Below, piece after piece: positions 13,961 to 61,545 of a DNA stretch of 64,000 nt. Positions within the stretch are counted from its first letter, which is position 1; every line of letters starts with the position of its first letter. A program made the position numbers and the translations under genes. A model generated the notes under the pieces. It did not search any database and was not told the origin of the DNA. It worked only from the letters and a program-made list of their open reading frames with translations. This DNA is from Nitrospirota bacterium (GTDB lineage Bacteria; Nitrospirota; Nitrospiria; Nitrospirales; Nitrospiraceae), in the NCBI GenBank assembly GCA_963701855.1, contig CAVPBK010000005.1:192001-256000 (forward strand). The letters are read 5' to 3'.

Positions 13961-14091
13961 TATGCGCAATGCACGATCATCAGCTGTAACATCTCGTCGT
14001 CCGGTTGACCACCCTAGGAACGGGTGATAGAATCCGCGAAGACAAGGACTTCTCGATTCAGCAAGGTGTTTCGCATTCTTCGAGTAGCGCC

Positions 14092-15861
14092 ATGGACGGC
14101 AAGAAAGAAAGTCCGAGTCGATTCCGGTCTCTCCGAGATTCCGTCACGCAGATCACGAAGCGGTTGACCGAAGGAGAAACGGGCGTGGCACAACGCAACG
14201 ACGAACATGTTCGCGAAGTTGAAAAGCTTCGGGTGCAGATCCAGTCGATGGAAGAAGAAATCCGCCGGCTGTACCAGTCCCGCTACCAGCTCGACCAAGC
14301 CACTAAACAGAACGAAAAACTCGTCTCCACGCTCCAGGAAGCGAAGTCGCAGATCGAAGCGTTGCGTGGCGAAGTTGAGAAATTGACTGCGCCTCCTTCG
14401 GCTTATGCCATCTTTTCCAGCCTCAATGATGACGGAACCGGGATTGTCTATGTCTCCGGACGAAAAATGAAGGTCAGCGTGCATCCGTCGATCAATGGAA
14501 AGGCGATGCGTAAGGGGCAGGAAGTGATCCTGAACGAAGCATTGAATGTCATTGAGGTTAAAGGTTTCGACATTCAGGGCGAAGTTGTACGGCTCAAAGA
14601 CGTGCTGGAAGGTAACCGTGCCCTGGTGACGTTGCATTTCGACGAAGAAAAGGTGGCAGAACTCGGTGATCCGTTGCTGGCCGAACGATTGAGCGTCGGG
14701 GACCATCTGCTCTACGATCCTCGCTCCGGCTATGTTGTCGAAAAGTTGCCGAGGTCCGAGGCGGAAGAATTGGTATTGGAAGAAGTGCCCGATGTTGATT
14801 ATGAGCACATCGGCGGGTTGCAGCACGAGTTGGAGCAGGTCCGCGATGCGGTGGAGTTGCCGTTTCTTCATCCGACCCTATTTTCAGAGTATAAGTTAAG
14901 CGCGCCCAAGGGGGTCTTGCTCTATGGGCCGCCGGGCTGTGGGAAAACCTTGATCGCCAAGGCTGTCGCAAATTCGATTGCCAAGAAACTCGGGCACCTC
15001 ACCGGCAAAGAAGTGCGGAGTTACTTCTTGCATGTGAAGGGCCCTGAGTTGCTCAATAAGTATGTCGGTGAGTCTGAACGCCAAGTCCGCGAAGTCTTCA
15101 AGAAAGCGAAAGAGCGGGCGGAAGACGGTAATCCTGTCATCGTATTCTTTGACGAGATGGATGCGCTCTTTAGAACGAGAGGCACCGGGATCTCTTCCGA
15201 CATTGAATCGACAATCGTCCCACAGTTTCTCTCGGAAATCGACGGCATGGAACGGCTCCGCAATGTGATTGTGATCGGAGCCAGTAATCGCCAGGATCTC
15301 ATCGATCCGGCGGTCCTTCGCGCTGGACGGTTGGATGTGAAGGTCAAGGTGGGTCGTCCCGATGCAGTGGCGGCCAAGGATATTTTCTCCAAGTATCTGA
15401 GCATCGACCTGCCGTTTGCCGAGGAAGATTTGAAACACCATGGCGGAGACGCCAAGGCCCTAGTCGAGCAGATGACCGATCTCACGGTCGGAGCGATGTA
15501 TGCGTCCTCGGAGGAGAATAAGTTCATCGAGGTCACCTATGCGAACGGTGAAAAAGAAGTACTCTACTTCAAGGATTTCGCGAGCGGTGCCCTGATCGAA
15601 GGCATCGTGTCGCGCGCAAAGAAATTTGCCGTCAAGCGGGCGATTGCGAAGGAAGGCCGTGGCCTCCGGTCCGAGGACTTGATTCGCGCTATTCGGGAAG
15701 AGTTTAAGGAACACGAAGACCTGCCCAATACGACCAATCCTGACGACTGGGCAAAGATTTCCGGGAAGAAAGGCGAGAAGATCGTGCATCTTCGGACGAT
15801 CAGCGGAGGCCCGGGCGAGTCGCGTCAGATCGAAACCGTTACGACAGGGCACTATCTCTAA
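14092..15861 (+). CDS. arc: Proteasome-associated AAA+ ATPase (ARC/Mpa)
   Basis: Coiled coil plus OB domains, GPPGCGKT, VFFDEMD, PNTTNPDDWAKISG, C-terminal GHYL (compare Mpa GQYL); start approximate. Confidence 0.93.
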   Translation: MDGKKESPSRFRSLRDSVTQITKRLTEGETGVAQRNDEHVREVEKLRVQIQSMEEEIRRLYQSRYQLDQATKQNEKLVSTLQEAKSQIEALRGEVEKLTAPPSAYAIFSSLNDDGTGIVYVSGRKMKVSVHPSINGKAMRKGQEVILNEALNVIEVKGFDIQGEVVRLKDVLEGNRALVTLHFDEEKVAELGDPLLAERLSVGDHLLYDPRSGYVVEKLPRSEAEELVLEEVPDVDYEHIGGLQHELEQVRDAVELPFLHPTLFSEYKLSAPKGVLLYGPPGCGKTLIAKAVANSIAKKLGHLTGKEVRSYFLHVKGPELLNKYVGESERQVREVFKKAKERAEDGNPVIVFFDEMDALFRTRGTGISSDIESTIVPQFLSEIDGMERLRNVIVIGASNRQDLIDPAVLRAGRLDVKVKVGRPDAVAAKDIFSKYLSIDLPFAEEDLKHHGGDAKALVEQMTDLTVGAMYASSEENKFIEVTYANGEKEVLYFKDFASGALIEGIVSRAKKFAVKRAIAKEGRGLRSEDLIRAIREEFKEHEDLPNTTNPDDWAKISGKKGEKIVHLRTISGGPGESRQIETVTTGHYL

Positions 15862-15873
15862 GACGTCATACCC

Positions 15874-17373
15874 ATGCAGGAACCTACCTCGCCGCCGAGT
15901 CCCCGCGTCCTAGGAACAGAAACGGAATTCGGTATCGCGTCACGCGATCCTGCCGCCGCAGACCCTGTTTCTAACTCCATCTCCGTCATCGGGCACTATC
16001 CAGGCCTGTCGGCCCCGTTGGCTATCTGGGACTATGAAAATGAGAACCCGCTGCTCGATGCGCGTGGCTTCGAGGTTGAAGGGGAACGGGAGCGGCCCAA
16101 TGTTGAGTACAATCGTCAGCTGAATAAGGTGCTGGCAAATGGGGGACGTCTCTACGTCGATGGCGCCCATCCTGAATACTCCACGCCCGAGTGTACCAAT
16201 CCGCGTGAAATAGTGGCCTTCGAACGAGCCGGCGAGCGAATCCTTGCCCAGTGCCTCGAACAAATGGCACGCGCTACCGGGAGGGATCATTGTGTGCTGT
16301 ACAAGAACAACTCGGACGGCAAGGGGAACAGCTACGGCTATCACGAAAGCTATCTCATGTCGCGCGCAGTTCCCTTCGAGCGCATCGTGAAAGTTTTAGC
16401 GCCGTTCTTTGTGACGCGGCCAATTTTTGCAGGGGCCGGAAAAGTTGGCGCAGAGAATCAGACTAGCCCAACGGAGTATCAGATTTCGCAGCGTGCGGAT
16501 TTCTTCGAGTGCCTCGTCGATCTCAATACAATGGTGCGGCGCCCTATCGTCAACTCACGCGATGAGCCGCATGCGGAGTATGGCAAGTATCGGCGGTTGC
16601 ACGTGATTGTCGGAGACGCCAATATGGCGGAACTGTCGACTTACCTCAAGGTAGGCACGTTGGCCCTTGTTCTGGATCTCATCGACGCTGGGGCAGATCT
16701 TCCGCAGTTCGAATTGGACGATCCGGTCCGAAGCATCAAGCAAGTGTCGCGCGACTTGGGCATGAAGGAGACACTCAAATTGGCGGGGGGGCGCTCGACG
16801 ACGGCTGTGGCGATTCAACGCGCCTATTTGAAGGCCGTCATGGGATACTATGCCTGCCACGATCTCTCCCAAGTCACAAAAGATATTCTCGTCCGTTGGG
16901 AAGACGTGCTGGATAAGTTGGAGCAAGATCCTCGGCTTTTGGTGCGTGAGCTAGATTGGGTGGCGAAGCGCCAGATGATGGAATCCTATATGGAGCGAAA
17001 AGGCTGTGGGTGGGACGACCCTCGCGTACGGCTGATGGACCTGCAGTATCACGATGTCCGTTCCGACAAAGGTCTCTACTTTACACTCGAACGAAGCCAT
17101 CTGATTGAGCGAGTTGTGCAGGACGTTGAGATCGTGCGAGCGGAATTCACCCCGCCTCCTGGGACGCGCGCCTATTTCCGTGGACGATGTGTCAGCAAGT
17201 TTGCGAAGTCGCTTTATGGGGTCAGCTGGACCTCGGTCCTCTTCGACGTTGGCAATAATCAGGTCAAACGAGTTCCCTTAATGGACCCGCTCCGAGGCAC
17301 GGCATCGCTGACAAGCGACCTCCTTGATCAGGTCGAGACCGTCGACGCATTGCTGGAAAAGCTCAAGGCCTGA
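15874..17373 (+). CDS. dop: Pup deamidase/depupylase Dop
   Basis: GTETEFGI, NGGRLYVDGAHPEYSTPEC, KNNSDGKGNSYGYHE, RRLHVIVGDAN. Confidence 0.88.
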   Translation: MQEPTSPPSPRVLGTETEFGIASRDPAAADPVSNSISVIGHYPGLSAPLAIWDYENENPLLDARGFEVEGERERPNVEYNRQLNKVLANGGRLYVDGAHPEYSTPECTNPREIVAFERAGERILAQCLEQMARATGRDHCVLYKNNSDGKGNSYGYHESYLMSRAVPFERIVKVLAPFFVTRPIFAGAGKVGAENQTSPTEYQISQRADFFECLVDLNTMVRRPIVNSRDEPHAEYGKYRRLHVIVGDANMAELSTYLKVGTLALVLDLIDAGADLPQFELDDPVRSIKQVSRDLGMKETLKLAGGRSTTAVAIQRAYLKAVMGYYACHDLSQVTKDILVRWEDVLDKLEQDPRLLVRELDWVAKRQMMESYMERKGCGWDDPRVRLMDLQYHDVRSDKGLYFTLERSHLIERVVQDVEIVRAEFTPPPGTRAYFRGRCVSKFAKSLYGVSWTSVLFDVGNNQVKRVPLMDPLRGTASLTSDLLDQVETVDALLEKLKA

Positions 17374-17399
17374 TATCAACTCCCCACGCGATTGACATT

Positions 17400-18227
17400 A
17401 TGAAATTGCCATTTCTCCCCAACCACGACGACCCGAGTTTCTTCGACTTTTTGACCCAGCATCATCCGGCTCTGACTCCGACCGGCCGCAGTGGATTTCT
17501 GCAGGCTCAAGCCACGACCGAGCCGATGCGCGGGGCCGGCTCGATGAGTGTGCCCCATGCCACCACCGTGCTGGCGATCAAGTATCAACAGGGCGTGGTA
17601 ATTGCCGGAGATCGTCGAGCGACGGAAGGGTTTCAAATCGCCGAACGCCGGATCGAGAAAGTCTTCAAGATCGACGAGTTTTCAGCGATGGCAATCGCCG
17701 GCGCAGCCGGACCCTGCATCGAAATGGCCAAGTTGTTCCAAGTCGAGCTGGAGCATTATGAAAAGTTAGAGGGTGTGCAACTGTCTTGTGAAGGGAAGGC
17801 CAACAAGCTGGGTCAGATGGTTAAGGCCAATCTGCCGATGGTGTTTCAAGGGCTGGTCGTCATGCCGCTCTATGTCGGCTACGACCTGAAGCGCGCAGAA
17901 GGCCGCATCTTCAAGTACGATCTCGCCGGGGGCCGGTACGAAGAATCAGACTACCATGCCATAGGGTCAGGAGGAAAAGATGCGCGCAATACGATGCGTG
18001 AGCATTTCCTCAAAGGATTGGCTGAGCCGGACGCGCTGAAGTTGGCCCTGCTGGCTCTATACAATGCAGCAGACGATGATGTCGGCACCGGGGGGCCGGA
18101 TCTCGTGCGGGGCATCTACCCCACCGCGAAGATCGTCAACGCAACCGGCATTACCGATGTCTCGGAACAGCAGATCCGTGGCATCTATGATGGGTTGATT
18201 GCAACCCGCCGGTCCAAGGAGAACTAA
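17400..18227 (+). CDS. prcB: 20S proteasome beta subunit
   Basis: Propeptide then HA|TTVLA (Thr1 nucleophile), AGDRRAT, IGSGG, DDVGTGGPD. Confidence 0.93.
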   Translation: MKLPFLPNHDDPSFFDFLTQHHPALTPTGRSGFLQAQATTEPMRGAGSMSVPHATTVLAIKYQQGVVIAGDRRATEGFQIAERRIEKVFKIDEFSAMAIAGAAGPCIEMAKLFQVELEHYEKLEGVQLSCEGKANKLGQMVKANLPMVFQGLVVMPLYVGYDLKRAEGRIFKYDLAGGRYEESDYHAIGSGGKDARNTMREHFLKGLAEPDALKLALLALYNAADDDVGTGGPDLVRGIYPTAKIVNATGITDVSEQQIRGIYDGLIATRRSKEN

Positions 18228-18229
18228 GT

Positions 18230-18916
18230 ATGCCGATGCCCTATTACGTCTCGCCCGAGCAGATGATGCAGGACAAGGCGGAGTATGCCAAGAAAGGCAT
18301 TGCCAAAGGCCGCTCCATCATCGCGATCGAATATGTGAACGGGATACTGCTCGTCGCGGAAAACCCCAGCGCCTCACTCTATAAAATTTCAGAGATCTAC
18401 GACAGCATCGCCTTTGCGGGGGCCGGCAAGTACAGTGAGTTTGAAAATCTCAGGAAAGCCGGCATCAGACACGCGGATCTCAAAGGATTCATGTACAGCC
18501 GGGAAGATGTGACAGCCCGCTCTCTTGCGAACGGCTATTCTCAAAGCCTCGGCACTATTTTCAGTCAGGAGCTGAAGCCGCTGGAGGTGGAAATCCTGGT
18601 GGTGCAGGTCGGGCACAACGGCCAGGCCAATGAGATGTATCGTATTTCTTTCGACGGCAGCATCATCGACGAACGTGCCTTTGCAGTCATCGGAGGCAAG
18701 TCAGAGGCCGTGCAGGCCCTGCTCAAGGAGAAAGGGTTGACGCAACTCCAGGAACTTCAGGCTGCTCTCACCCTTTGTATCACCGCACTTGAACAAATCG
18801 GAAACCAGAAGCTCTCGCTGGAGAGCCTGGAAGTGGCGATTCTTGATCGCACCCGCGACGGCAGAAGGTTCCGTCGTCTTGCTCCCGCCGATACCAAGCA
18901 GCTCCTCGCTTCCTAA
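18230..18916 (+). CDS. prcA: 20S proteasome alpha subunit
   Basis: PYYVSPEQMMQDKAEYAKKGIAKGRS, KISEIYD, KPLEVEI. Confidence 0.93.
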   Translation: MPMPYYVSPEQMMQDKAEYAKKGIAKGRSIIAIEYVNGILLVAENPSASLYKISEIYDSIAFAGAGKYSEFENLRKAGIRHADLKGFMYSREDVTARSLANGYSQSLGTIFSQELKPLEVEILVVQVGHNGQANEMYRISFDGSIIDERAFAVIGGKSEAVQALLKEKGLTQLQELQAALTLCITALEQIGNQKLSLESLEVAILDRTRDGRRFRRLAPADTKQLLAS

Positions 18917-19040
18917 CAGGATGCTGAAAAAGCCCGCCAGTGTAAGAAGACCGTTATTTGGTTTGTTTGGTCTGTCTCGTTTGTTTGGTTGAACGAAACT
19001 AACCAGATAAACAAAACAAACAAGATGAACAAGACAGACC
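18917..19040. repeat. Half family-A MITE end fused to a 9-bp periodic inverted repeat
   Basis: CAGGATGCTGAAAAAGCCCGCCAG, then (TTTGGTTTG/TCTG)n and (AACCAGATA/AACAAGACAGACC)n. Confidence 0.7.
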
Positions 19041-19104
19041 GCATCGGCGGATCGTGTCATTCTGTTGAAGAAGACGGAGCTGGCTGGTATTCTGTCCTAC
19101 ACGC

Positions 19105-20499
19105 ATGTTGCAACCCAGTCCCCTGAGACGACGAATCTTCGGTTTGGAGAATGAGTACGGCCTCATTTTTTCTCCGAACGGACGCGTCTATCTGCCGATG
19201 GAGAAGGTGCTAGGGTATATTTTTGAAGGTCTCATTCCGAACAGCTGGCCTTCCAATGCTTTCCTGGTGAACGGCGCTCGGTTTTACCAGGACACCGGCT
19301 GCCATCCTGAGTATTCCACCCCCGAGTGTGACAACATTCTTGATCTCGTCATCCACGACAAAGCCGGTGAGCGACTGCTTGAAGCCTGCTTGCCTGCGGC
19401 TGAAGAACGATTACGGGAAGAGGGTTTGTCCGGGGAAATCTACATTTTCAAGAACAATACAGATTCGCTCGGCAATACCTACGGGTGCCATGAAAACTTC
19501 CTTATGCGCCGCGATGTTGATTTTTGGAAAGTCACGGAACAACTCATTCCCTTTTTCGTCACCCGGCAGATCTATAGTGGAGCGGGAAAGGTTCTAAAAG
19601 TATCGGGCAAACCGCAGTACTTTATCTCGCAACGGGCACAACACATTCACGAGAAGACCTCCTCCTCGACCACCTCCTCGCGCAGCATCATCAATACTAG
19701 AGACGAACCGCACTCTGATGCGGAACGCTACCGGCGGCTCCATATCATCGTCGGGGATTCCAACATGTCGGAGTTTGTAACCTATTTGAAGGTCGGCACG
19801 GCGACGTTGGTGCTGTCCATGATTGAGGAAGGGTATGCAGTCCAAGGGATGGAGTTCGAGGACCCAGTCAAAGCCATTCGGGAGGTGTCGCGTGATCCCA
19901 CCTTGAAGCGCAAGATTAAGCTGGACGATGGTCGTCAAATGACGGCGATCGAAGTTCAGCGGGTCTATCTGGATCGAGCGCAGGAGTATTTGGCCCAACA
20001 GGAGCACGATCCGACCCTCGACGATGTGTGGCAGCGATGGGCCATGGTGCTGGATAAACTTGAAGAGGATCCGATGCAGCTCGTGCGTGAAATCGATTGG
20101 GTGACCAAGCGCCATCTGATCCAGTCCTATATCGACAAGAAGGGTTGCGGTTGGGACGACCCACGGGTGTTCCTGCTCGATCTCCAATTTCATGACGTCA
20201 AACGGACGCGCGGATTGTACTATCTGATGGAGTCCCGTGGGCTGATCGAACGGGTGGTGGAGGAGGAAGCGGTGCAACGGGCCATGTCGACTCCGCCACA
20301 GACCACGAGGGCGAAGGTGCGCGGCGATTTCATTCGGTTTGCCCGCGCGAAGAATCGCTCCTACACGGTCGACTGGACCTATCTGAAACTCAATGGCTAC
20401 TGGGAAGAAACGATTCTCTGTATGGACCCTTTCAGCGCCGTGAATCGGCGTGTGGATGAATTGCTCTCGCAGGTGGCGGGGCTACGGTTTTACCGATAA
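19105..20499 (+). CDS. pafA: Pup--protein ligase
   Basis: RRIFGLENEYG, NGARFYQDTGCHPEYSTPECD, KNNTDSLGNTYGCHEN, TTRAKVRGDF, VDWTYLK. Confidence 0.9.
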   Translation: MLQPSPLRRRIFGLENEYGLIFSPNGRVYLPMEKVLGYIFEGLIPNSWPSNAFLVNGARFYQDTGCHPEYSTPECDNILDLVIHDKAGERLLEACLPAAEERLREEGLSGEIYIFKNNTDSLGNTYGCHENFLMRRDVDFWKVTEQLIPFFVTRQIYSGAGKVLKVSGKPQYFISQRAQHIHEKTSSSTTSSRSIINTRDEPHSDAERYRRLHIIVGDSNMSEFVTYLKVGTATLVLSMIEEGYAVQGMEFEDPVKAIREVSRDPTLKRKIKLDDGRQMTAIEVQRVYLDRAQEYLAQQEHDPTLDDVWQRWAMVLDKLEEDPMQLVREIDWVTKRHLIQSYIDKKGCGWDDPRVFLLDLQFHDVKRTRGLYYLMESRGLIERVVEEEAVQRAMSTPPQTTRAKVRGDFIRFARAKNRSYTVDWTYLKLNGYWEETILCMDPFSAVNRRVDELLSQVAGLRFYR

Positions 20500-22359: not shown

Positions 22360-23259
22360 TTAAGAGTCACTGCTCCGTCGCTCGAACTCCAGCGGACTGA
22401 GATACCTCAGGCTCTGATGCAGCCGCTGGCGATTGTAGAACCCCTCGATAAACGCAAAGATCTCCCGGCTCGCCTCGTCCCGCGTGTGATACGTCTGGTG
22501 ATGGACCAATTCATTCTTGAGCGTGCTGAAGAAGCTCTCTGCCACGGCATTGTCATAACAGTTGCCCTTCCGACTCATGCTCGGGACTATGCCGAGACTT
22601 ACGAGCTGCCGTTGATAGGCCAGACAGCTATATTGAGCGCCTTGATCGGAATGATGAATCAGGCCTGGCCGGACGCGTCGTTGATGCACCGCCATGGCCA
22701 GGGCGTCGAGCGTCAGCTGTTGATCGGGCCGGGCACTCATCGCCCAGCCGATCGCGCGTCGTGAATACAAATCCAGCAGCACCGCCACATAGAGCCAGCC
22801 AGCTCGTGTCGGCACGTGAGTCATGTCACCGACCCACACCCGATTCAGTTCCGTCGTCACAAAGCGTTGCTGGAGCCGGTTGGGTGCCGGTGGGGGAAGT
22901 TGATGGTGTTCGACGATGACGCGGAAGCGCCGGGCTCGCCGGGCTTCGAGCCCCGCGAGTTTCCGCAGCCGGGCTACCCGATGGCGGCCACAGCGAATGC
23001 CACGGGCAGTCAGCACCCGCCAGAGTTTCAATGCGCCGTACCCTTCGCGCGTCTGCTGATGCAGGTCCCGCAGGACTGGGAGGAGCTGGTGATCCTCTGC
23101 GGCCCGCGCACTCACCGGGCGATCCCGCCAGGCATAGTAGCCGCTCCGACTGACGGCGAGGGCCGCGCACAAGCGACTGACGCGATGAGTCTGTGCCTGA
23201 GTCCGGATAAACGCGTATCTCACGTGGACTCCCTCGCAAAGAACGCGGCGGCTTTTTTT
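22360..23259 (-). CDS. IS3 transposase OrfB (DDE integrase core), joined to OrfA by -1 frameshift
   Basis: WVGDMTHV, HHSDQGAQY, SRKGNCYDNAVAESFFSTLK; A7G slippery site at about 23252-23259. Confidence 0.93.
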   Translation of the reverse strand, partial: KKSRRVLCEGVHVRYAFIRTQAQTHRVSRLCAALAVSRSGYYAWRDRPVSARAAEDHQLLPVLRDLHQQTREGYGALKLWRVLTARGIRCGRHRVARLRKLAGLEARRARRFRVIVEHHQLPPPAPNRLQQRFVTTELNRVWVGDMTHVPTRAGWLYVAVLLDLYSRRAIGWAMSARPDQQLTLDALAMAVHQRRVRPGLIHHSDQGAQYSCLAYQRQLVSLGIVPSMSRKGNCYDNAVAESFFSTLKNELVHHQTYHTRDEASREIFAFIEGFYNRQRLHQSLRYLSPLEFERRSSDS

Positions 23260-23510
23260 AAAATGTCGCGCTCCTCCGTCACTCGGGCCAACTCCCGCTT
23301 GAGCCGGGCCAGTTCGGCCGCGGGTTCGGCTTGCCGCCCGGAGCCCGGGAATGCCCCGCCATGCGTGGCCACGTCCTTCTGCCATTTATAGAGACGATTG
23401 CGTGGGACGCCGAGCTCCCGGGCAATCTCGGCCGCGGGCCGTTGGCCCGCGTTCAGCAGCAGCACGGCTTGTCGCTTAAACTCAGGGGTGAACCGTCGTC
23501 GTTGGCCCAT
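23220..23510 (-). CDS. IS3 transposase OrfA (HTH plus leucine zipper)
   Basis: RRRFTPEFKRQAV, IARELGV, EERDILKKAAAFF. Confidence 0.93.
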   Translation of the reverse strand: MGQRRRFTPEFKRQAVLLLNAGQRPAAEIARELGVPRNRLYKWQKDVATHGGAFPGSGRQAEPAAELARLKRELARVTEERDILKKAAAFFAREST

Positions 23511-42791: not shown

Positions 42792-44219
42792 ATGTGGCGT
42801 CTCTTCTACAACATTCTGTTGCTGGTTGTTTCGCCGCTCATCGTGGCGGTCCTGCTGGCCAAGCGACGGTGCCGTCCCGGACTGCTTCAACGTCTGGGAA
42901 TAGGAAATAGTCTATCTGGGCTGTCTGGTCTATCTCGTCGACCGGATCAACCAGATAGACCAAACGAACCAGACAGACCTGATAGACCATCCCAACCAGT
43001 CATCTGGATTCACGCCGTTTCTCTTGGTGAAGTGGTGGCGGTGACACCCCTCGTCCACGAGCTCCATCGCCGTCATCCTGCGTACCTCCTGGTGGTCTCG
43101 ACGGTGACCGAGACCGGGCGGGAAGCAGTGGAGCAGCGGTTGGCCGGCGTGGCAGAACACTGTTATGCGCCGCTCGATTTCCCTTGGGTTGTTTCTCTGT
43201 TCATCGAACGATTGCAACCCTGCCTCTATCTGTTCGTCGAGACCGAACTCTGGCCGAATCTCTTGTGGCATCTGCGTCAGCGTGGAGTACCGACCGCTCT
43301 TGTGAACGGCCGGCTCTCGACCAGGTCTTTTGCACGGCAGCGGTGGGCGCCCGTGCGATCGTTCTATCGGACGATGTTGCAGACGCTCAGCCTCTGCCTG
43401 ATGCAGTCGGACCGGGACGTTGATCGTATCGTTGCGCTGGGAGCAGAGGCGTCGCGGGTCAGGCGAACAGGGAATATCAAGTTTGACCAGCCGATACCGG
43501 TTGTCGCGGAGGGTGCGACGACCAGGGCTCATCTTGGGCTTCAGGATACGGAACAGCTGTTTGTGGCAGGCAGTACCCATCCCGGCGAAGAAGAAATCCT
43601 CGTGGAATGCTATCGGGCGCTCGTGGCACGCTATTCCTCAGCGGTCTTATTGCTGGCACCTCGACACATTGAGCGAGCGGAATCGGTAGAGGCGATGATT
43701 CGGGCGCGCGGGCTCGCGGTGCAGCGACGCAGCACTATTGGGCAGGCCGGCGCGCGGAGGTCTACTGGTCCTCGTGTGGTGGTGCTCGATTCACGGGGGG
43801 AATTGGCTGCGATCTACCGGGAAGCGGTGGTGGCGTTTGTCGGAGGCACACTCGTTCCGATTGGTGGACACAATTTGCTGGAGCCGGCTCAGTGGGCAAA
43901 ACCGGTGTTATTCGGTCTCTACACTGACCATTGTGCGGAGATAGCAGATTTATTGATCCAGGCGGGAGGGGGCCGCATGGTTCTTCATGCGGAGGATCTC
44001 ACGCAACAAGTCATGGCCCTCTTTTCCGATGACAAGGAACGGGAGCGGATGGGCCGGTCGGCTCGTCAGGTGGTCGAACAGAATCAGGGAGCCTTGCAAC
44101 GGACGATGGAGGCCATCGATAGATTGCTGATACCGAATCAAGGCACCAGTGGGTCTCTTCTTGCAGACCGGTCGCTTTCCCTCACGGCTGAGAAAAGTGG
44201 CACCTACTCAGGTAGATAA
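42792..44219 (+). CDS. waaA: Kdo transferase WaaA with an in-frame repeat insertion
   Basis: IWIHAVSLGE, ETELWPN, GNIKFD, GSTHPGEE, APRH.ER, GGHNLLEP. Confidence 0.93.
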   Translation: MWRLFYNILLLVVSPLIVAVLLAKRRCRPGLLQRLGIGNSLSGLSGLSRRPDQPDRPNEPDRPDRPSQPVIWIHAVSLGEVVAVTPLVHELHRRHPAYLLVVSTVTETGREAVEQRLAGVAEHCYAPLDFPWVVSLFIERLQPCLYLFVETELWPNLLWHLRQRGVPTALVNGRLSTRSFARQRWAPVRSFYRTMLQTLSLCLMQSDRDVDRIVALGAEASRVRRTGNIKFDQPIPVVAEGATTRAHLGLQDTEQLFVAGSTHPGEEEILVECYRALVARYSSAVLLLAPRHIERAESVEAMIRARGLAVQRRSTIGQAGARRSTGPRVVVLDSRGELAAIYREAVVAFVGGTLVPIGGHNLLEPAQWAKPVLFGLYTDHCAEIADLLIQAGGGRMVLHAEDLTQQVMALFSDDKERERMGRSARQVVEQNQGALQRTMEAIDRLLIPNQGTSGSLLADRSLSLTAEKSGTYSGR

Positions 44220-44346
44220 GCTGAAGGCTGTTAGGGGTCAATCATGCGTGATCACACACAGCATCGGGAATTTGAGTCGGCTGATCGTAATCACTCGGGC
44301 AGATAGACTGAAGGTTTCAGCCTTCAGCCTTCGGCTTGAACACCTG
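44214..44346 (+). pseudogene. Internally deleted four-helix-bundle cassette remnant
   Basis: ATG at 44244 gives MRDHTQHREFESAD, 35/42 nt identical to the gene start at 47175; both flanks also match the 47143-47560 cassette. Confidence 0.8.
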
Positions 44347-44360
44347 AGTCGGTACGAAAC

Positions 44361-45443
44361 GTGTTAACTCCTGGGGAAAAAGTCAGAAGATGGCTGATGT
44401 GGGCCGCAATCCCCTATGGGGTGGTTGCGCGGTTGCGCGCACTCCTGTACGACTGGGGCTGGTTCGCCCAGCGGCGATTGCCGGTCCCCGTGCTGAGTGT
44501 CGGGAATCTCACGCTGGGAGGGACAGGGAAAACGCCGGTAGTTATTATGCTGGTCGATTGGCTTCTGGCGCAGGGGAAACGGGTGGCGATTCTCAGCCGG
44601 GGCTATCGACGGACAAGTACGGCCTCGTATCTGCTGGTGTCGAATGGCGAGCACCTGTTGGTCGGCCCGAGTGAGGCCGGTGATGAACCATTCTTGATGG
44701 CGCAGCGTTGCCCCAAAGCAATCGTGGCTGTCGGCGCTGATCGCTATGAGCTCGGTAACTGGGTCTTGAAGCGATTTCCGATCGATTATTTAGTGCTCGA
44801 CGATGGATTTCAGCACCTAGGACTCGCGCGCGACGTCAATCTCTTGCTGGTCGATGCCACGGATGCGGAGGGACTCGCGGCTCTGGTGCCGGCCGGTCGG
44901 CTCCGGGAACCGCTACGGGCGGCGGCGCGCGCGACTGCGATCGTCGTTACGAGGGCAGACGTGCCGGCTCAGGTGACAGAGGTCTGTCGCAGACTGCGGG
45001 CCACGCTCGGTTCGATGTCGGACCCAATCCAGGCGGTCTTTCGTCCGGAGAGTCTCGTATCGGTGGTGACCGGTGCTTCGCAGCCGCTCTCCTGGTCCAA
45101 GGGGAAAACGGCGCTGCTCTGCAGCGGCGTGGGTCATGCCGGATCGTTTCGCTCTCTCGTCGAGCGAATAGGGATCAGGATTCTTGATGAAATGGTCTAT
45201 GCCGATCACCATGCCTATACGAACCAGGATGTCGAACGACTGAGTGCCAGAGCAGTTGAGCTTCAGGCTGAGATGGTTGTGACGACGGAGAAAGATGCCA
45301 GCAAGTTGGCTGCGCTGCTCCAACCCACCGATAGCTGGTGGGCAGTCCGATTGAGCACCTATGTGATTGTGGGGGAAGATCGGCTGCGGCGGTTAGTTCT
45401 CGATAGGCTGAAAGCTGAAGGCATATCTTTCGGAGGGTTGTGA
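44361..45443 (+). CDS. lpxK: Tetraacyldisaccharide 4'-kinase
   Basis: SVGNLTLGGTGKTP, LSRGY, GDEP, LDDGFQH, PAGRLRE, TTEKD. Confidence 0.95.
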   Translation: MLTPGEKVRRWLMWAAIPYGVVARLRALLYDWGWFAQRRLPVPVLSVGNLTLGGTGKTPVVIMLVDWLLAQGKRVAILSRGYRRTSTASYLLVSNGEHLLVGPSEAGDEPFLMAQRCPKAIVAVGADRYELGNWVLKRFPIDYLVLDDGFQHLGLARDVNLLLVDATDAEGLAALVPAGRLREPLRAAARATAIVVTRADVPAQVTEVCRRLRATLGSMSDPIQAVFRPESLVSVVTGASQPLSWSKGKTALLCSGVGHAGSFRSLVERIGIRILDEMVYADHHAYTNQDVERLSARAVELQAEMVVTTEKDASKLAALLQPTDSWWAVRLSTYVIVGEDRLRRLVLDRLKAEGISFGGL

Positions 45444-47146
45444 ATAAAGACTCAATAAAGAGAATTCTTGTGCGTGGACCTAACTGGCTTGGCGATGCGG
45501 TGATGTGTGAGCCCGCGCTCCGTGGATTGCGGAGGCTATTCCCCGACGCTCAGATTGCGCTGTTGGTCAAGCCGGCTGTAGCCGATTTGTTCGCAGGCCA
45601 TCCGTCATTGACGCGCGTGTTGACCTACGACACCAAGGGGCACCATGCGGGACTCTCCGGTAAGTGGGGTCTGGCTGGGCAGTTGCGTCGGCAAGGCTTC
45701 GACCTGGCGGTGTTGTTTCAGAATGCGTTTGAGGCGGCGTTTCTGACGTTCCTGGCCGGCGTGCCTCGGCGCTATGGGTATGCAACAGACGGACGAAGTC
45801 TGCTGCTGTCAGATCCAGTTGTTACGCCGGATCGCCGCTCGCTAGTCCATCAGGTTCGCTATTATTGGGACATGCTGGAACCGCTGGGCCTCAAGGGCGA
45901 CCCTTCTGCACCAGAACTCGCCGTTTTTCCTGAGGAGGAACAGGCGATGGCGGGGAGATTTGCCCAGGGCGGATTGTCCGCCACGGATGTCGTCGTCGGG
46001 GTCAATCCAGGTTCGACCTACGGTGGGGCCAAACGCTGGTTGCCTGAACGGTTTGCCGAGGTCACGGAACGACTCTGCAGCACAATTCGCGAATCTCGCG
46101 GACAACAAGCCAGCGTGGTCATTTTTGGAGCCAAGGGAGAAGAGCGTTTGGGTCAGGAGATTGCTGAGCGTCTGACGTCCCCATCTCTGGTCTTGTCCGG
46201 GGCAACGACGATCCGGGAACTCATGGCAGCGGTGAAACGGTGTGCCATGCTCCTTACGAATGATACCGGTCCCATGCACATCGCGTCTGCGTTTCAGGTG
46301 CCGGTCGTCGCGATTTTCGGGCCGACCGATTGGCGCACCACGTCGCCCTTTGGGAGCGCCCATGCCATTGTGCGTCAGCCGGTCGATTGCGCACCCTGCC
46401 TATTGCGTGAATGTCCTATCGACCATAGGTGCATGACGCGGGTGACGGTGGATCAAGTCTATGAAGTGGGTCTGTCTAGCCTTTCTAGTCTGTCTGGTCG
46501 AAAAGCTCTATCTGGTCTATCTCGTCCGAACCAGACAAACAAGACAGACCTCTCCCACCAGATAGACCAGACAAACATTCTCGATGGTGTCACTGTGTTT
46601 CTGGATCGAGATGGAACATTGAACTACGATCCAGGCTATTTGAAAATCGCCGCTGATCTGAAGTTGTTGGCGGGGGTTGGGCCGGCTCTCGCGCGGTTGA
46701 AAGGGGCCGGTGCGAAATTAGTGGTCGTGACCAACCAATCCGGTGTTGGCCGTGGAATTGTGACCCTCAAGGATCTGGAAGCGATTCATGCCCGCCTACA
46801 AGGTATTTTGGAACAGGAGGACGCGGCGCTGGATGCGATCTATTTTTGCCCGCACCATCCTGACGATGGCTGCCGCTGCCGCAAACCGAATGTCGGAATG
46901 GTGGAACGGGCTGTGTCAGAGTTGCAACTGGATCTCCGACGTTCCTATTTGATTGGCGATCACGCGCGCGATATACAATTGGCACACAAGGTTGGAGCCA
47001 AGGCTATTTTGATTACGACCACGCAGGTGGACGCGCAGTCGATGGATAGGCTTAAGGTTGAACAGGCCATGCCTGATGCCGTGGCGAAGTCTATGACTGA
47101 GGCAGTTGACTGGATCCTGAATGACGTGAAGACACTACTCAGATAG
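45440..47146 (+). CDS. waaF: Fused heptosyltransferase II (WaaF) and heptose-1,7-bisphosphate phosphatase (GmhB)
   Basis: PNWLGDAVM, NPGSTYGGAKRW, TNDTGPMH; then FLDRDGTL, VTNQSG, CPHHP..C.CRKP; linker is a 9-bp repeat. Confidence 0.9.
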   Translation: MNKDSIKRILVRGPNWLGDAVMCEPALRGLRRLFPDAQIALLVKPAVADLFAGHPSLTRVLTYDTKGHHAGLSGKWGLAGQLRRQGFDLAVLFQNAFEAAFLTFLAGVPRRYGYATDGRSLLLSDPVVTPDRRSLVHQVRYYWDMLEPLGLKGDPSAPELAVFPEEEQAMAGRFAQGGLSATDVVVGVNPGSTYGGAKRWLPERFAEVTERLCSTIRESRGQQASVVIFGAKGEERLGQEIAERLTSPSLVLSGATTIRELMAAVKRCAMLLTNDTGPMHIASAFQVPVVAIFGPTDWRTTSPFGSAHAIVRQPVDCAPCLLRECPIDHRCMTRVTVDQVYEVGLSSLSSLSGRKALSGLSRPNQTNKTDLSHQIDQTNILDGVTVFLDRDGTLNYDPGYLKIAADLKLLAGVGPALARLKGAGAKLVVVTNQSGVGRGIVTLKDLEAIHARLQGILEQEDAALDAIYFCPHHPDDGCRCRKPNVGMVERAVSELQLDLRRSYLIGDHARDIQLAHKVGAKAILITTTQVDAQSMDRLKVEQAMPDAVAKSMTEAVDWILNDVKTLLR

Positions 47147-47174
47147 ATAGGCTGAAGGCGTTTATGGGTTAAGC

Positions 47175-47534
47175 ATGCGGGATGACACACAGCTTCGGGC
47201 ATTTGAGCTGGCAGATGAAGTGGTCATGTTAGCGTATCGGACAACCGCAGGGCTTCCAAAGGAAGAGATGTTTGGACTGACTTCTCAGATACGGCGGGCA
47301 GCAGGTTCAGTTCCTTCTAATATCGTGGAAGGTTGCGCTCGTGACAGTGAGACAGAGTAGCTCAGATTTCTCAATATCGCCTTCGGGTCGTTGAGGGAGC
47401 TACACTATCAAATAAATTTGTCGAAGCGCCTGGGCTTCTTGCCCCGGGAGAATTCATCTCTGCTTGAACCAAAGATCGTAGAAACCGAGAAGGTATTGAA
47501 TGGCTTGATTCGTGCTCTGCGAGATAATTCATAG
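47175..47534 (+). pseudogene. Four-helix-bundle protein (TIGR02436 / 23S-IVP / Avd-like) with an in-frame TAG
   Basis: [33 protein letters not shown] at 47358-47360, then LRFLNIAFGSLRELHYQ...LNGLIRAL in the same frame. Confidence 0.88.
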
Positions 47535-47565
47535 CCTTCAGTCTTCAGCCTGAACACCTAACCGT

Positions 47566-48600
47566 ATGTCAGACTATCGCCACATTTTATTGATCAAGCC
47601 GAGTTCACTGGGCGACATCGTGCATACGATGCCGACCTGTGCGGCAATTCGCCGAGCCTATCCCAAGGCTCGACTCACCTGGTTGGTCAAGCGCCAATGG
47701 GCGGACCTAGTCGAGCGCATTGACGGGGTAGACCGGGTTTGGCCAGTGAAATCGACGCTCAAGGGGTGGCTCTCTCAGGTGCCCGCTCTTCGTACGGAGC
47801 GCTTCGATCTTGTCGTGGACCTTCAAGGTCTCTTTCGGAGCGCCGTCATCGGGTGGCTCGGAGGATCTCCTCTGCTTGTGGGATTTGCCAATGGGAGAGA
47901 GGGGAGTCCCTGGTTCTATTCGAGGTGCGTGCCGGTCCCACAATCGGAGATGCACGCGGTCGATCGTTACCTGCTTGTGGCCAAGGCAGTGGGGGCTGCG
48001 GAGTCCGGTGCGCCGGAGTTCCGTTTCCGCATTCCGCAGACCGATTATGAAGAGGTTGATGGTCTCTTGATCCGATCCGGCGTAACGCCTGGAACGAGTT
48101 GGGTGGCGATGAATGTCTCTGCTCGGTGGCCGACCAAGCGGTGGCCGGCTGCGTCGTTTGCCGAAGTCGCAGACCGGCTGCGGCAAGAAGAATGTGGCGC
48201 GGTGGTGATGATCGGTGGCCCTGACGAACGAGAGGATGTTGCCGCAGTGAACGGGATGATGAAGGCTCCTGCTATCGATCTGACCGGAGCCACGGCAGTG
48301 GGGTTGCTGCCGGCGCTCCTGAGCAGGGCGTCGCTGCTGATTACGAACGATTCAGGTCCGATGCATATTGCAGCAGCGGTTGGCACACCAGTGGTGGCCC
48401 TGTTCGGGCCGACGAGTGCGGTTCGAACCGGCCCCTATGGGATGGGTCACCACGTTTTGACGGGAAAGGTACCCTGTAGCCCCTGCTTCAGTCGAACTTG
48501 CCATAATACTCTGCAGTTGGAGTGTTTGAGAACGGTCTCGCCACAACAAGTACTGGCGGCGGCGCGAGCACAGCTGTCTCTTCGGGTGACTCCCCGATGA
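47566..48600 (+). CDS. LPS heptosyltransferase, GT9 (WaaC/WaaF-like)
   Basis: IKPSSLGDIVH, DLQGLFRS, TKRWP, TNDSGPMH, LFGPT. Confidence 0.88.
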   Translation: MSDYRHILLIKPSSLGDIVHTMPTCAAIRRAYPKARLTWLVKRQWADLVERIDGVDRVWPVKSTLKGWLSQVPALRTERFDLVVDLQGLFRSAVIGWLGGSPLLVGFANGREGSPWFYSRCVPVPQSEMHAVDRYLLVAKAVGAAESGAPEFRFRIPQTDYEEVDGLLIRSGVTPGTSWVAMNVSARWPTKRWPAASFAEVADRLRQEECGAVVMIGGPDEREDVAAVNGMMKAPAIDLTGATAVGLLPALLSRASLLITNDSGPMHIAAAVGTPVVALFGPTSAVRTGPYGMGHHVLTGKVPCSPCFSRTCHNTLQLECLRTVSPQQVLAAARAQLSLRVTPR

Positions 48601-58049: not shown

Positions 58050-58922
58050 TTACGCCACGGCCAACGAAGTTGACTCCTGTGCTGTTTGGGGCTGGTTGTG
58101 CTGGTGGTTGATGAACTCCATGGGTGTCAGATCCCCGATGGCACTGTGTGTCCGCTCTTCATTGTACTCTCGTCGCCAGGCTTCAATCACGAGCTGCGCT
58201 TCCTGTAGCGTCAGAAACCAGTGTTCATTGAGACATTCATCCCGAAACTTGCCGTTGAAGCTTTCGATAAACGCATTCTGGACGGGTTTTCCCGGCTGAA
58301 TAAAATGCAGATGCACGCCGTGGTGGGCGGCCCAGGCATCCAAGGCCGTCCCGGCGAATTCGGGACCGTTGTCCAGAATCAAGGTCTCCGGCAGCGGGCG
58401 AGTCAGAAACAGTCGATCCAGAATCCGACACACCCGCGCACCGCCGATCGAGACATCGACCTCAATCACCGGCACCTCTTTGGAGCAGGGATCCGTCATC
58501 GTCAAACACTTGAACCGCCGGCTCGTCACGAGCCGGTCATGCACAAAATCCATCGCGTAACAGTGTCCTGGTTGCGTGGGCTTCGGTAAGGTGACTCGTG
58601 GAACCGCCGCTGCTTCCTTCCGTCGCCGCCGAAGCGAGAGCCCTTCGTCGCGATAATACAGCCGTTCGACCTTCTTATGGTTCACAGCCCATCCCTCTCG
58701 GCGCAACCGTACATAAATCCGGGGACACCCATCGCGTCGCTTGCTCTCGGCAATCTCCCGGATCCGTGTCCGCAGAGCCGCATCGTCCTGACGTCAACTG
58801 CGATACCGCAGTGTGTTCCGATCGAGGGCCAGGACGTGGCACACCCGACGCTGACTGAGCCCGACGCGCTCGGCCATCCACTGCGCCGCCGCTCGCTTCG
58901 CCTTGGGCCCTACCAGTTTTTT
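58050..58922 (-). pseudogene. IS3 OrfB transposase with an in-frame TGA
   Basis: [39 protein letters not shown] at 58794-58796 interrupts ..[13 protein letters not shown].. Confidence 0.85.
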
Positions 58923-59176
58923 GTGGTGACCGCTATCAGCGCCTGAATGTCCAGCGCTTGCTCCGCCACCATCTGCGTCAATCGCCGATTTTCGTCTTCC
59001 AGCTGGCGGAGCTTCTTCACGTCGCTGACTTCCAGTCCCGCATACTTGGTCCGCCACTTATAAAACGTGGCGTCCGAGATGCCGTGCTTGCGGCAGAGCT
59101 CTGAGACCCCGATGCCCGCTTGGGCATCCTTGAGCACTGCGATGATCTGTTCCTCCGTGTGCCGTTTCCGTGTCAT
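58910..59176 (-). CDS. IS3 transposase OrfA
   Basis: RKRHTEEQII, CRKHGISDATFYKWR, LEDENRRL; A6C slip site near its end. Confidence 0.9.
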   Translation of the reverse strand: MTRKRHTEEQIIAVLKDAQAGIGVSELCRKHGISDATFYKWRTKYAGLEVSDVKKLRQLEDENRRLTQMVAEQALDIQALIAVTTKNW

Positions 59177-59993: not shown

Positions 59994-60081
59994 GGCGTGG
60001 CGCTTCCGCTCGTGGTCGACATTGTGTGTGGTGCGTGCGATGTCGGATCTGTAAGTGAAAGGGCGGAGCTGTGTCCAAAGC

Positions 60082-60180
60082 GGTCTATCTGGTTGATGAG
60101 GTCTGTCTTGTCTATCTTGTGCGGGACCGGATCGATTGATGAGATAGACCTGATAGGACCGAACAGACGAGACAGACCTG
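60082..60180. repeat. 9-bp periodic inverted repeat upstream of the four-helix-bundle gene
   Basis: GGTCTATCT GGTTGATGA GGTCTGTCT TGTCTATCT ... GAGATAGAC CTGATAGGAC CGAACAGAC GAGACAGAC. Confidence 0.8.
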
Positions 60181-60184
60181 TCTT

Positions 60185-60565
60185 ATGAAAGTCAGCCGTT
60201 TTGAAGATTTGGATTGCTGGAAGGAAGCTCGCCAACTTACCCGACAGGTTTATGAAGCAATAGGGCGAAATCCCCTCTGGCAGAAGGATGTTCGGCTATG
60301 CGGGCAGATTCAAGCAGCATCTGTATCGGTGCTGTCGAACGTAGCTGAAGGATTCGTTCGGCATTCCGATAAAGAATTTGTGCAGTTCTTGTTTATAGCC
60401 ATGTCTTCAGCGGCAGAGACTCAGAGTCATGCCTATGTGGCTCTGGATCAAAAATATCTCTCCCAAGAGAGTTTTGATGCCATCTATGCACAAGCTGGGA
60501 AAACAAGTCGAATCATTTCAGGCCTCATTAAGTATCTCCGAAACAAGGCTGGCAAGACCAGATAG
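60185..60565 (+). CDS. Four-helix-bundle protein (TIGR02436 / 23S-IVP / Avd-like), intact
   Basis: RFEDLDCWKEARQL, QIQAASVSVLSNVAEGF, KEFVQFLFIA..SAAE. Confidence 0.9.
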   Translation: MKVSRFEDLDCWKEARQLTRQVYEAIGRNPLWQKDVRLCGQIQAASVSVLSNVAEGFVRHSDKEFVQFLFIAMSSAAETQSHAYVALDQKYLSQESFDAIYAQAGKTSRIISGLIKYLRNKAGKTR

Positions 60566-60595
60566 ACCAGATAGACCAGATGGACCAGACAGACC
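60556..60595 (+). repeat. (GACCAGATA)n tandem repeat spanning the four-helix stop and the UpxY start
   Basis: GACCAGATA GACCAGATA GACCAGATG GACCAGACA GACC. Confidence 0.85.
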
Positions 60596-61087
60596 ATTCA
60601 CTGCGTTGGTATGCGTTACGGACGCGGTCGCGTCACGAAAAGATGGTGCGCGACCAGCTTGCGAATCAAGGCATTGAGCCGTTATTGCCGACGGTCAAGC
60701 GAATGAGTCAATGGAAGGATCGGAAGAAAGAAATCGAAGTTCCGCTCTTTTCAGGATACTGCTTCGTCCGCTTTGCATCGGAGCAAAAGTTGCCGGTGCT
60801 CAAGACGATCGGAGTGGTCGACATTGTGGGCAGCCGGCCATTGCCCGGAGGCGATCCCGGACGAGGAGATTGCGGCGATCAAGACCCTGATGACCAGTGT
60901 GCTGCCCTACGATCCACATCCGTATCTGCACGAAGGCATGCAAGTGGAAGTGGTCCGAGGTCCGTTGCAAGGAGTGCACGGGATTCTCTTGCGCAAAGAA
61001 AAACACCATCGCCTCGTGTTGGGAGTCCGACTCATTCAGCAAGCCGCAGCCGTGGAGATCGATGTGAATGATGTGGTGCCGGTGTGA
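60580..61087 (+). CDS. UpxY/NusG-paralog transcription antiterminator (frameshift near 60835)
   Basis: WYALRTRSRHEK, PLFSGYCFV (NGN domain); after a +1 shift PEAIPDEEI and EGMQVEVVRGPLQG (KOW domain). Confidence 0.85.
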
Positions 61088-61140: not shown

Positions 61141-61545
61141 ATGCAGAAGCAAGACGAGAATCTTACACGATCGATCCTGGCCGTCCTCAACACACAGTCT
61201 GGGATCAGACTAGCCATTCTGTTCGGCTCGCTGGCCGCTGGTCGGGAGCAGGCAGACAGCGATGTGGACCTGGCAGTAGACGCCGGTCACCGCCTCACAG
61301 TCGGAGAGAAGCTGGCTCTGGTGACTGAGCTGGCGGAACGGACGGGTCGCCCGGTTGATCTGGTCGATCTCCACGCCGTTGGGGAACCACTTCTAGGCCA
61401 GATCCTCCGGCATGGGAAAAGATTGTTGGGGAGCGAGACGTGCTACGCCGACCTCATCCGCAGACACCTCTTCGATCAGGCGGACTACCTGCCATACCGC
61501 ACAAGAATCCTTGCTGAAAGGAGGCGGGCATGGATCGGGAAGTAA
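61141..61545 (+). CDS. Minimal nucleotidyltransferase (MNT/MntA-type antitoxin)
   Basis: LFGSLAAG...SDVDLAV, RPVDLVDL. Confidence 0.85.
   Translation: MQKQDENLTRSILAVLNTQSGIRLAILFGSLAAGREQADSDVDLAVDAGHRLTVGEKLALVTELAERTGRPVDLVDLHAVGEPLLGQILRHGKRLLGSETCYADLIRRHLFDQADYLPYRTRILAERRRAWIGK

Follow-up and report, generated by a model that had tools for sequence, protein, structure and literature searches.

A four-helix-bundle gene in its own repeat arms and IS66-type ends: a probable two-layer mobile element in a polysaccharide gene cluster of Nitrospirota

The 64,000-nucleotide stretch analyzed here (the window; positions 192,001 to 256,000 of contig CAVPBK010000005.1, Nitrospirota bacterium assembly GCA_963701855.1) is a lipopolysaccharide/exopolysaccharide (LPS/EPS) gene cluster. 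Between the stop codon of its waaF-gmhB fusion gene and the ATG of the next heptosyltransferase gene lies a gene of the four-helix-bundle family TIGR02436/PF05635, flanked by short inverted repeats. This cassette probably belongs to a family of two-layer elements, in which the four-helix gene sits in its own heptamer arms and these, in turn, sit inside 12-base-pair (bp) ends of the IS66 type. Those insertions of the family that duplicated their target are very likely the work of an IS66 transposase acting in trans. As a mechanism, the IS66 layer is nothing unusual; what makes the element interesting is its inner cassette, together with the replacement of one cassette by another at the same site. 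The parts of the focal copy and its host genes are as follows, in window coordinates.

45440..47146, plus strand: host waaF-gmhB fusion gene, stop codon TAG at 47144-47146
47131..47158, plus strand: left end, made up of an IS66-type 12-bp terminus (2 mismatches to GTAACTACTCAG) and then the heptamer arm
47159..47174, plus strand: spacer with a degenerate Shine-Dalgarno-like run (ATGGG here, AGGGG in relatives)
47175..47534, plus strand: four-helix-bundle gene, TIGR02436/PF05635, 119 codons, TAG at codon 62 (47358-47360)
47533..47559, plus strand: right heptamer arm, CTTCAGC units, last bases ACACCT
47560..47569, plus strand: right IS66-type end site, eroded (8/12 mismatches)
47566..48600, plus strand: host heptosyltransferase gene downstream of the focal cassette, ATG at 47566

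An initial annotation of the window had placed the four-helix gene exactly at this junction and described inverted 7-bp arms that include a stop codon on either side. Both observations stand: the gmhB stop falls within the left arm, and the stop codon of the four-helix gene itself within the right one. The left end provides the final codons of waaF-gmhB as well as its stop. The PF05635 gene is the only open reading frame (ORF) in the cassette, which lacks a transposase of its own. The annotation missed the IS66-type end, a related copy at 44200-44355, and the in-frame TAG that breaks the gene at codon 62. The same TAG letter is present in contigs from two sequencing runs of two studies (one of them possibly the source sample); in the genome of the closest relative this codon is TAT and four further residues differ, one of these four possibly peculiar to this assembly. 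Both halves of the broken gene pass the TIGR02436 cut-off in a profile search, and an intact relative scores 113 bits against the TIGR02436/PF05635 profile and matches PDB entry 2GSC with an E value of 1e-24. The closest relatives of the protein come from Nitrospira and Nitrospirota records. The focal arms, of only about two to three heptamer units, are complementary except for an internal mismatch of 3-4 bases, and they pair in the predicted fold; the mismatch, which is conserved, was left unused because the loci were chosen by consensus match. The cassette folds no better than shuffled sequences (z -1.46). A terminator or promoter role for the element was rejected, with no such site found in 46900-47700. 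The focal copy is an old, dead one and not a recent insertion. Since it is unremarkable alone, the case against chance is made at the level of the family, from the copies in this genome and from the arms of related genes elsewhere.

The genome contains 24 copies of the family, including the focal one, that range from 62 to 439 bp; 23 of them are internally deleted. The copies were collected by a nucleotide search with the cassette and by a motif search, both inner anchors being required. Their consensus continues for 10 bases past the arms (GTAACTACTC on the left, its complement on the right), and the outer ends of the family are 12 bp long, GTAACTA(C/T)TCAG. Identity between the two flanks is highest at a length of 8 bp, 0.49 over the 24 copies versus 0.20-0.38 at 3-7 and 9-13 bp, and rises to 0.68 among the 12 copies with good ends; the observed 8-bp identity sum was reached in none of 5000 permutations. 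Duplications of 7/8 or better flank 6 of the 22 nonredundant copies (two copies of a duplicated segment dropped, a one-base slip allowed), with a permutation maximum of 1. A duplication of 8 bp suggests a DDE enzyme for the focal family, and an 8-bp target duplication is listed for two IS66 elements in PMC3281130. One contig contains a several-kilobase (kb) inverted duplication (G000:C3:2365-10057 and 58516-66029), which is either real or an effect of assembly.

The copy at the waaA/lpxK junction of the window illustrates an insertion with its duplicated target.

44192..44199, plus strand: left 8-bp target duplication, GAAAAGTG
44200..44355, plus strand: internally deleted copy at the waaA/lpxK junction, fold z -4.98
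44356..44363, plus strand: right 8-bp target duplication, GAAACGTG, matching at 7/8, which holds the lpxK start codon

In this copy a left end is followed by codons 1-14 of the gene, another left end, and the right end; the copy supplies the waaA stop codon. Among 17 loci of the genus, the junction is filled in 9 and empty in 8. In the eight empty alleles, the word before lpxK matches the duplicated word, though not base for base.

The copies decay by stop codons, frameshifts, and internal deletion. One deletion is common to six copies, and the others retain different parts of the gene. The 62-bp copy lies within another four-helix gene; a four-helix gene with CGTGAAA-type arms is truncated at that copy (G000:C5:275105-275385). 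Gene-less remnants in this genome share sites with full cassettes of its relatives, so some of the gene-less copies were gutted in place. The initial reading of the gene with its own repeat as a mobile unit that leaves gene-less arms behind, and carries no mobility enzyme, is supported. The preference for operon junctions that it also proposed is not: 24 of 30 gene-less copies lie between co-directional genes, near a background of 2764 of 3709 (crude gene calls), and their orientations relative to the neighboring genes (17 same/same, 7 opposite/opposite, and 6 mixed, with three duplicated copies among the 30) show no clear departure. Both preferences were rejected. A plasmid search with the deleted copy gave two chance 20-bp matches and nothing else. 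Across the genus, the left-end pattern was found in 66 of 85 genomes, up to 31 times in each, and not at all in the reversed control; of 30 loci taken from this search, 18 have both ends.

Other genomes contain intact copies of 432-453 bp, with both ends and target duplications, at unrelated sites. Three come from the 30 best loci of the genus, L187 and L200 (7/8 each) and L191 (6/8); two more, L337 and L345, from Nitrospira and Desulfobacterales records, have perfect ends and 8/8 duplications. The wider survey covered the 80 closest genes (the best 80 of 481 from genome contigs, at 70-98% identity, some of which overlap the genus set). Of the loci with both IS66 ends in this survey, four have duplications of 7/8 or better; far-flank controls gave 0/63. 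Arms of the GCTGAAG type flank the gene on both sides in 64 of the 80 loci and on at least one side in 77, as compared with none of 63 control flanks, which agrees with the initial expectation that such flanks accompany the gene. The arm-bearing loci represent 53 neighborhoods with at least seven phylum labels, and their genes form one clade with a Shimodaira-Hasegawa-like approximate likelihood ratio (SH-aLRT) support of 96, in a quick tree of 141 proteins and 118 columns with no bootstrap. Copies with IS66 ends are scattered through this clade.

Focal-type arms were found in none of 61 other four-helix genes, which comprise 60 lower-identity loci, hand-picked from 150 listed of 290 genus matches, plus the copies of this genome, and which are largely orthologous groups rather than independent cases. 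Each of these other-clade groups has its own 6- to 9-base repeat unit, and both IS66 ends were found in 0 of 64 other-clade loci. That the repeat type tracks the protein clade, a point that the initial annotation proposed to check, is seen both in the tree and in the exchange of cassettes between marR and upxY described below. The four-helix gene is under purifying selection (median dN/dS, the ratio of nonsynonymous to synonymous substitution rates, of 0.09-0.15 over 76 intact genes, in pairwise comparisons that are not independent), although many genomic copies are decaying. In 58 of the 64 loci scored, it has the same orientation as the ORF upstream of it. In two loci (L033 and L035) a 9-bp hairpin is nested within the loop of the focal family, and in four others (L365, L381, L382, and L401, at ~1450-1900) the cassette replaces the middle of what we take to be an integron-type tyrosine recombinase gene.

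These data leave little room for the notion that the repeats arose locally, by slippage around a vertically inherited and decaying gene, with nothing moving. Such a scenario would fit the focal junction, filled as it is through much of the genus and with alleles that decay in place, and yet copies with duplicated targets at unrelated sites refute it; the association of one gene clade with one repeat type in 53 neighborhoods of several phyla, the 62-bp copy inside another four-helix gene, and the empty waaA/lpxK alleles in 8 of 17 loci add to this, and we give it next to no probability. At the focal gmhB/waaC junction itself, the comparison of filled and empty alleles suggested at the outset gave alleles of five types. 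Eighteen of 21 genus loci were informative: the gene is intact in 4 and broken in 5, focal-family arms with no gene seen occur in 2 (one of which has an assembly gap), arms of two other repeat families in 6, and no array in 1. The gene is present in 0 of 9 loci outside the taxonomic family of the host, four of which have gaps of 4-5 bp. On the host tree, the allele types are scattered, with 6 changes versus a shuffled mean of 6.8 (some labels come from partial views). Because they cluster no more than shuffles do, one old insertion followed by replacements is indistinguishable from repeated exchange, and the dating of the focal insertion by the host tree was given up.

The identity of the outer ends was revealed by viral contigs. 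A scan of these with 14 bases of the end gave 122 stretches, of which 80 were examined and most appeared to be chance matches. One, however, is an 1833-bp single-ORF element (L110) whose product is an IS66 transposase by both Pfam and NCBIfam (NF033517); it has 16 terminal bases in common with the cassette family and an 8/8 target duplication. Such single-ORF IS66 elements (NF033517/PF03050) are, we presume, the group named ISBst12. A search with L110 of 251 genomes from the phylum gave 18 IS66 loci. Eight of these have GTAACTA(C/T)TCAG at both ends (with up to 2 mismatches), and in two of the eight the duplication is 8/8; a further group has GTAAC ends that differ. None of the eight comes from the host taxonomic family; the complete cognates belong to other families of the phylum. 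PF03050 matches were found in 19 of the 85 genus genomes, with only one matching end seen. A weak IS66-transposase match in the present genome was rejected as an IS256-like element with other ends, and no autonomous element was found beside its four lone end matches. The genome also has four matches to PF01797, the Y1 (HUH) transposase domain that goes with REP/REPIN arrays and RAYT. Searches of viral contigs for relatives of two IS66 proteins returned one protein's own contig and, for the other, nothing.

A metagenome scan for both ends spaced 404-434 bases apart yielded 78 elements with diverse contents. Fifteen match the four-helix profile, eight of them from the focal clade and the others with other heptamer arms; seven resemble GxxExxY genes and have periodic arms of their own (three checked by Pfam); and four of eight suspected transposase fragments match PF03050. 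GIY-YIG genes are also carried between the same ends. The four-helix, GxxExxY, and PF03050-fragment contents together indicate that the 12-bp ends are a general IS66 shell. The GxxExxY genes (PD-(D/E)XK-like; L416, L426, L430, L433, L444, L472, and L410) have inverted periodic arms inside the same IS66 ends, so that a second gene family appears to share the cassette design. Mobility in trans had been proposed from the outset; for the focal family, an IS66-family transposase working on ordinary terminal repeats is its very likely vehicle, and mobility of this kind is known.

The second four-helix gene of the window is intact and belongs to another clade; the initial annotation had correctly described it as bracketed by a 9-bp repeat family.

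60085..60180, strand not assigned: 9-bp-repeat hairpin 5' of the second gene, TCTATCTGG units followed by CCAGATAGA units
60185..60565, plus strand: second four-helix gene, intact, other clade, preceded by a MarR-EPS-like gene and followed by a frameshifted upxY
60549..60596, plus strand: right 9-bp arm of the second cassette, which supplies the upxY start codon

No IS66-type end was found at the 60085-60180 hairpin. The marR/upxY site was compared in 30 loci. Nineteen contain a gene of the same clade with CCAGA-type arms, and five contain another four-helix gene (32-36% identity) with other 9-base arms that begin at the same point; a further five have gene-less arms of either type, one is cut off, and none is empty. 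Gene and repeat type swap together at this site without IS66 ends. The cassettes insert directly after a conserved word, GTAAGTGAAAGGGCGGAGCTG, upstream of upxY (~60053-60073). By its resemblance to ops/JUMPstart, this word presumably may be a upxY loading site. The upxY-like antiterminator gene itself is split by a frameshift (60580-61087).

In the proposed mechanism, an IS66 transposase encoded elsewhere would move the cassette by its 12-bp ends, and a second route would place cassettes in the tips of hairpins and replace resident ones. The composite element would go back to a minimal IS66 end-to-end hairpin that took up a cassette in its tip, just as other cassettes would land in other hairpins. 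Such an origin is suggested by the heptamer arms, which start directly inside the 12- to 13-bp end, and by a 31-bp end-to-end hairpin present in L436 and L469; on balance, we consider it probable. It is nearly an even chance that the protein, a predicted pentamer, recognizes the periodic arms sequence-specifically and favors its own cassette through the second, IS66-independent route; such recognition is conceived by analogy with Avd, the protein partner in diversity-generating retroelements (DGRs). The four-helix gene would be expressed by read-through from the upstream host gene, which is likely.

Several observations count against this scheme. A mere 8 of the 80 closest loci have both IS66 ends, and 19 have at least one, which is also what suggests that a second route may exist. 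Among the 18 genus loci with both ends, only two reach 7/8 in exact register, and a duplication of 7/8 or better flanks 18 of the 78 metagenome elements. No complete IS66 element with these ends was found in the 85 genomes of the genus, and no IS66 transposase in the present genome, which is 97% complete. Counting copies makes the gutted forms seem more mobile than they are, since some of the gene-less ones decayed in place. At the focal copy, both a target duplication and the right outer end are missing, and its sister copies are the basis for supposing that IS66 inserted it. As for arm recognition, an intact protein is near neutral (16 Lys plus Arg, 16 Asp plus Glu, isoelectric point of 6.7), and Avd is described as positively charged; G-U oppositions do not exceed A-C ones on the sense strand of the arms (24:22 and 29:33); and a reverse transcriptase (RT) motif was found within 1.5 kb of 0 of the 80 loci. 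The last two results give no support to selection on the RNA strand of the arms or to a link with an RT.

A different view is that IS66 is the sole vehicle and the four-helix protein a host-beneficial cargo, for example a polysaccharide-operon regulator that binds the arms or a defense protein, the end-less copies having lost their ends. The scatter of end-bearing copies through the clade is what erosion would give, several copies lie within LPS/EPS operons, the gene is under purifying selection, and the same ends carry GxxExxY and GIY-YIG cargo. We nevertheless consider it unlikely: four of the six four-helix loci in the genome are broken, as are five of the nine alleles of the focal junction that contain the gene; the host tolerates gene-less arms between waaA and lpxK, while its genome yielded no intact cognate gene; and the other-clade cassettes, with both IS66 ends in 0 of 64 loci, still swap at one site. 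In addition, the four-helix protein has no match in PADLOC.

Another alternative places the movement at the RNA level, as in 23S ribosomal RNA (rRNA) intervening sequences: the arms would pair, RNase III would excise the element, and an Avd-like pentamer with a host RT would copy it into new stem-loops. The intervening sequence of Coxiella, with its heptamer repeats, 28-bp stem, RNase III cleavage, and replacement of a tetraloop, offers a likeness (PMC4990558), as do the weak match to the Avd model (E value of 1.8e-6, below the cut-off), the co-orientation with the upstream ORF in 58 of 64 loci, and four RT matches in the genome. The balanced G-U and A-C counts and the lack of RT motifs near the 80 loci speak against it; moreover, the focal copy folds only at the level of shuffles and the 8-bp duplications are accounted for by IS66, so that this path appears quite improbable. 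RNA sequencing runs contained at most 0.16 of the sequence words searched for. RT-domain genes of the genome are located at G000:C14:115868-116614, C14:43955-44362, and C9:1091-1719.

The preferred two-layer reading, in which IS66 ends enclose an inner gene-and-arms cassette, has parallels in several known systems. To our knowledge, no function has been assigned to TIGR02436/S23p proteins, common as they are, and the origin of intergenic heptamer arrays is not agreed upon. Mobile insertion cassettes (MICs) and MITEs (miniature transposable elements with inverted repeats) lack a transposase; they end in inverted repeats typical of an IS family, duplicate their target, carry a passenger gene unrelated to the IS, and leave gutted derivatives (PMC3129680, PMC3281130). 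The cassette family resembles them in its IS66 ends, duplications, passenger gene, and gene-less derivatives. However, the MICs covered in these two papers come from Bacillus cereus, with the present family having IS66 ends instead, and the present passenger, unlike that of MICs, comes with periodic arms of its own and is also found where IS ends are absent. Single-ORF IS66 elements share with the cassette the GTAACTA(C/T)TCAG end and the 8-bp duplication but contain a transposase gene and measure 1.6-2.4 kb versus 62-450 bp.

The ORF-containing intervening sequences of 23S rRNA (S23p; Coxiella and Leptospira) are 428-444 nucleotides long, with heptamer repeats beside the ORF, complementary ends, a patchy distribution, and ORF decay (PMC4990558). 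They have the same protein family and a similar size, whereas the cassette lies in protein-coding operons rather than in rRNA, has a different heptamer, and in part has IS66 ends. The solved member of the family, 2GSC, is a pentamer (PMC4990558). Avd is related to the four-helix-bundle family (PMC10053308), and the Avd pentamer contacts an RNA stem-loop through all five protomers (bioRxiv 2023.10.23.563531). The intact cassette protein reaches 28 bits against the Avd profile, with a cut-off of 80, the weak matches to NF033474 and PF22296 being below both cut-offs; it differs from the Avd of DGRs in the absence of a nearby RT motif and in its near-neutral net charge. Intergenic heptamer repeats without an explanation also occur elsewhere, for example TAACTGA in Beggiatoaceae (PMC4679880). 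The cassette arms differ from them in being inverted pairs traceable to a gene cassette, and no four-helix gene is named for Beggiatoaceae in the accessible text of that paper. A literature search, which covered main texts and few subscription journals, found no paper in which four-helix cassettes are described as having clade-specific arms or ends of the IS66 type.

The element thus links TIGR02436/S23p genes with heptamer arrays and provides matched pairs of protein clade and repeat unit. It also shows cassettes rewriting the ends of LPS-operon genes, with the stops of gmhB and waaA, the upxY start, and an in-frame waaF-gmhB linker all of this origin. A more speculative and rather doubtful generalization is that four-helix genes with clade-specific arms are widespread selfish cassettes, each pentamer reading its own 6- to 9-base repeat and steering the cassette into hairpin tips. 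If this were true, landing in rRNA helices would give intervening sequences, landing in other cassettes same-site replacement, and landing in minimal IS66 hairpins transposase-mobile composites, and many of the heptamer and nonamer arrays between bacterial genes would be what is left of gutted cassettes.

The genome contains 74 hairpins of the 9-base family in one arm order and none in the reverse (0 and 12, respectively, in the reversed-genome control). No remnants of other four-helix clades were detected by blastn in the gene-less hairpins of the genome, which leaves an origin of these 74 from gene cassettes unsupported. The waaF-gmhB linker (~46450-46580) is an in-frame 9-bp-repeat hairpin, and relatives have four different repeat families in frame at this position, or none. 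Another in-frame 9-bp-repeat hairpin lies within waaA (~42915-42990). Gene-less hairpins of the CGTGAAA family occur 11 times in the genome in a single arm order, and gene-less 9-bp or CGTGAAA hairpins are found at window gene junctions at 18955, 24044, 31130, 34439, 36263, 42700, and 50364.

Among the other genes of the window, an MntA-type adenylyltransferase antitoxin gene is located at 61141-61545. By sequence appearance, the ORFs at 58050-59176 and 22360-23385 resemble IS3-family transposases, and those at ~14005-20499 resemble a Pup-proteasome cluster (ATPase, Dop, proteasome subunits, and PafA).

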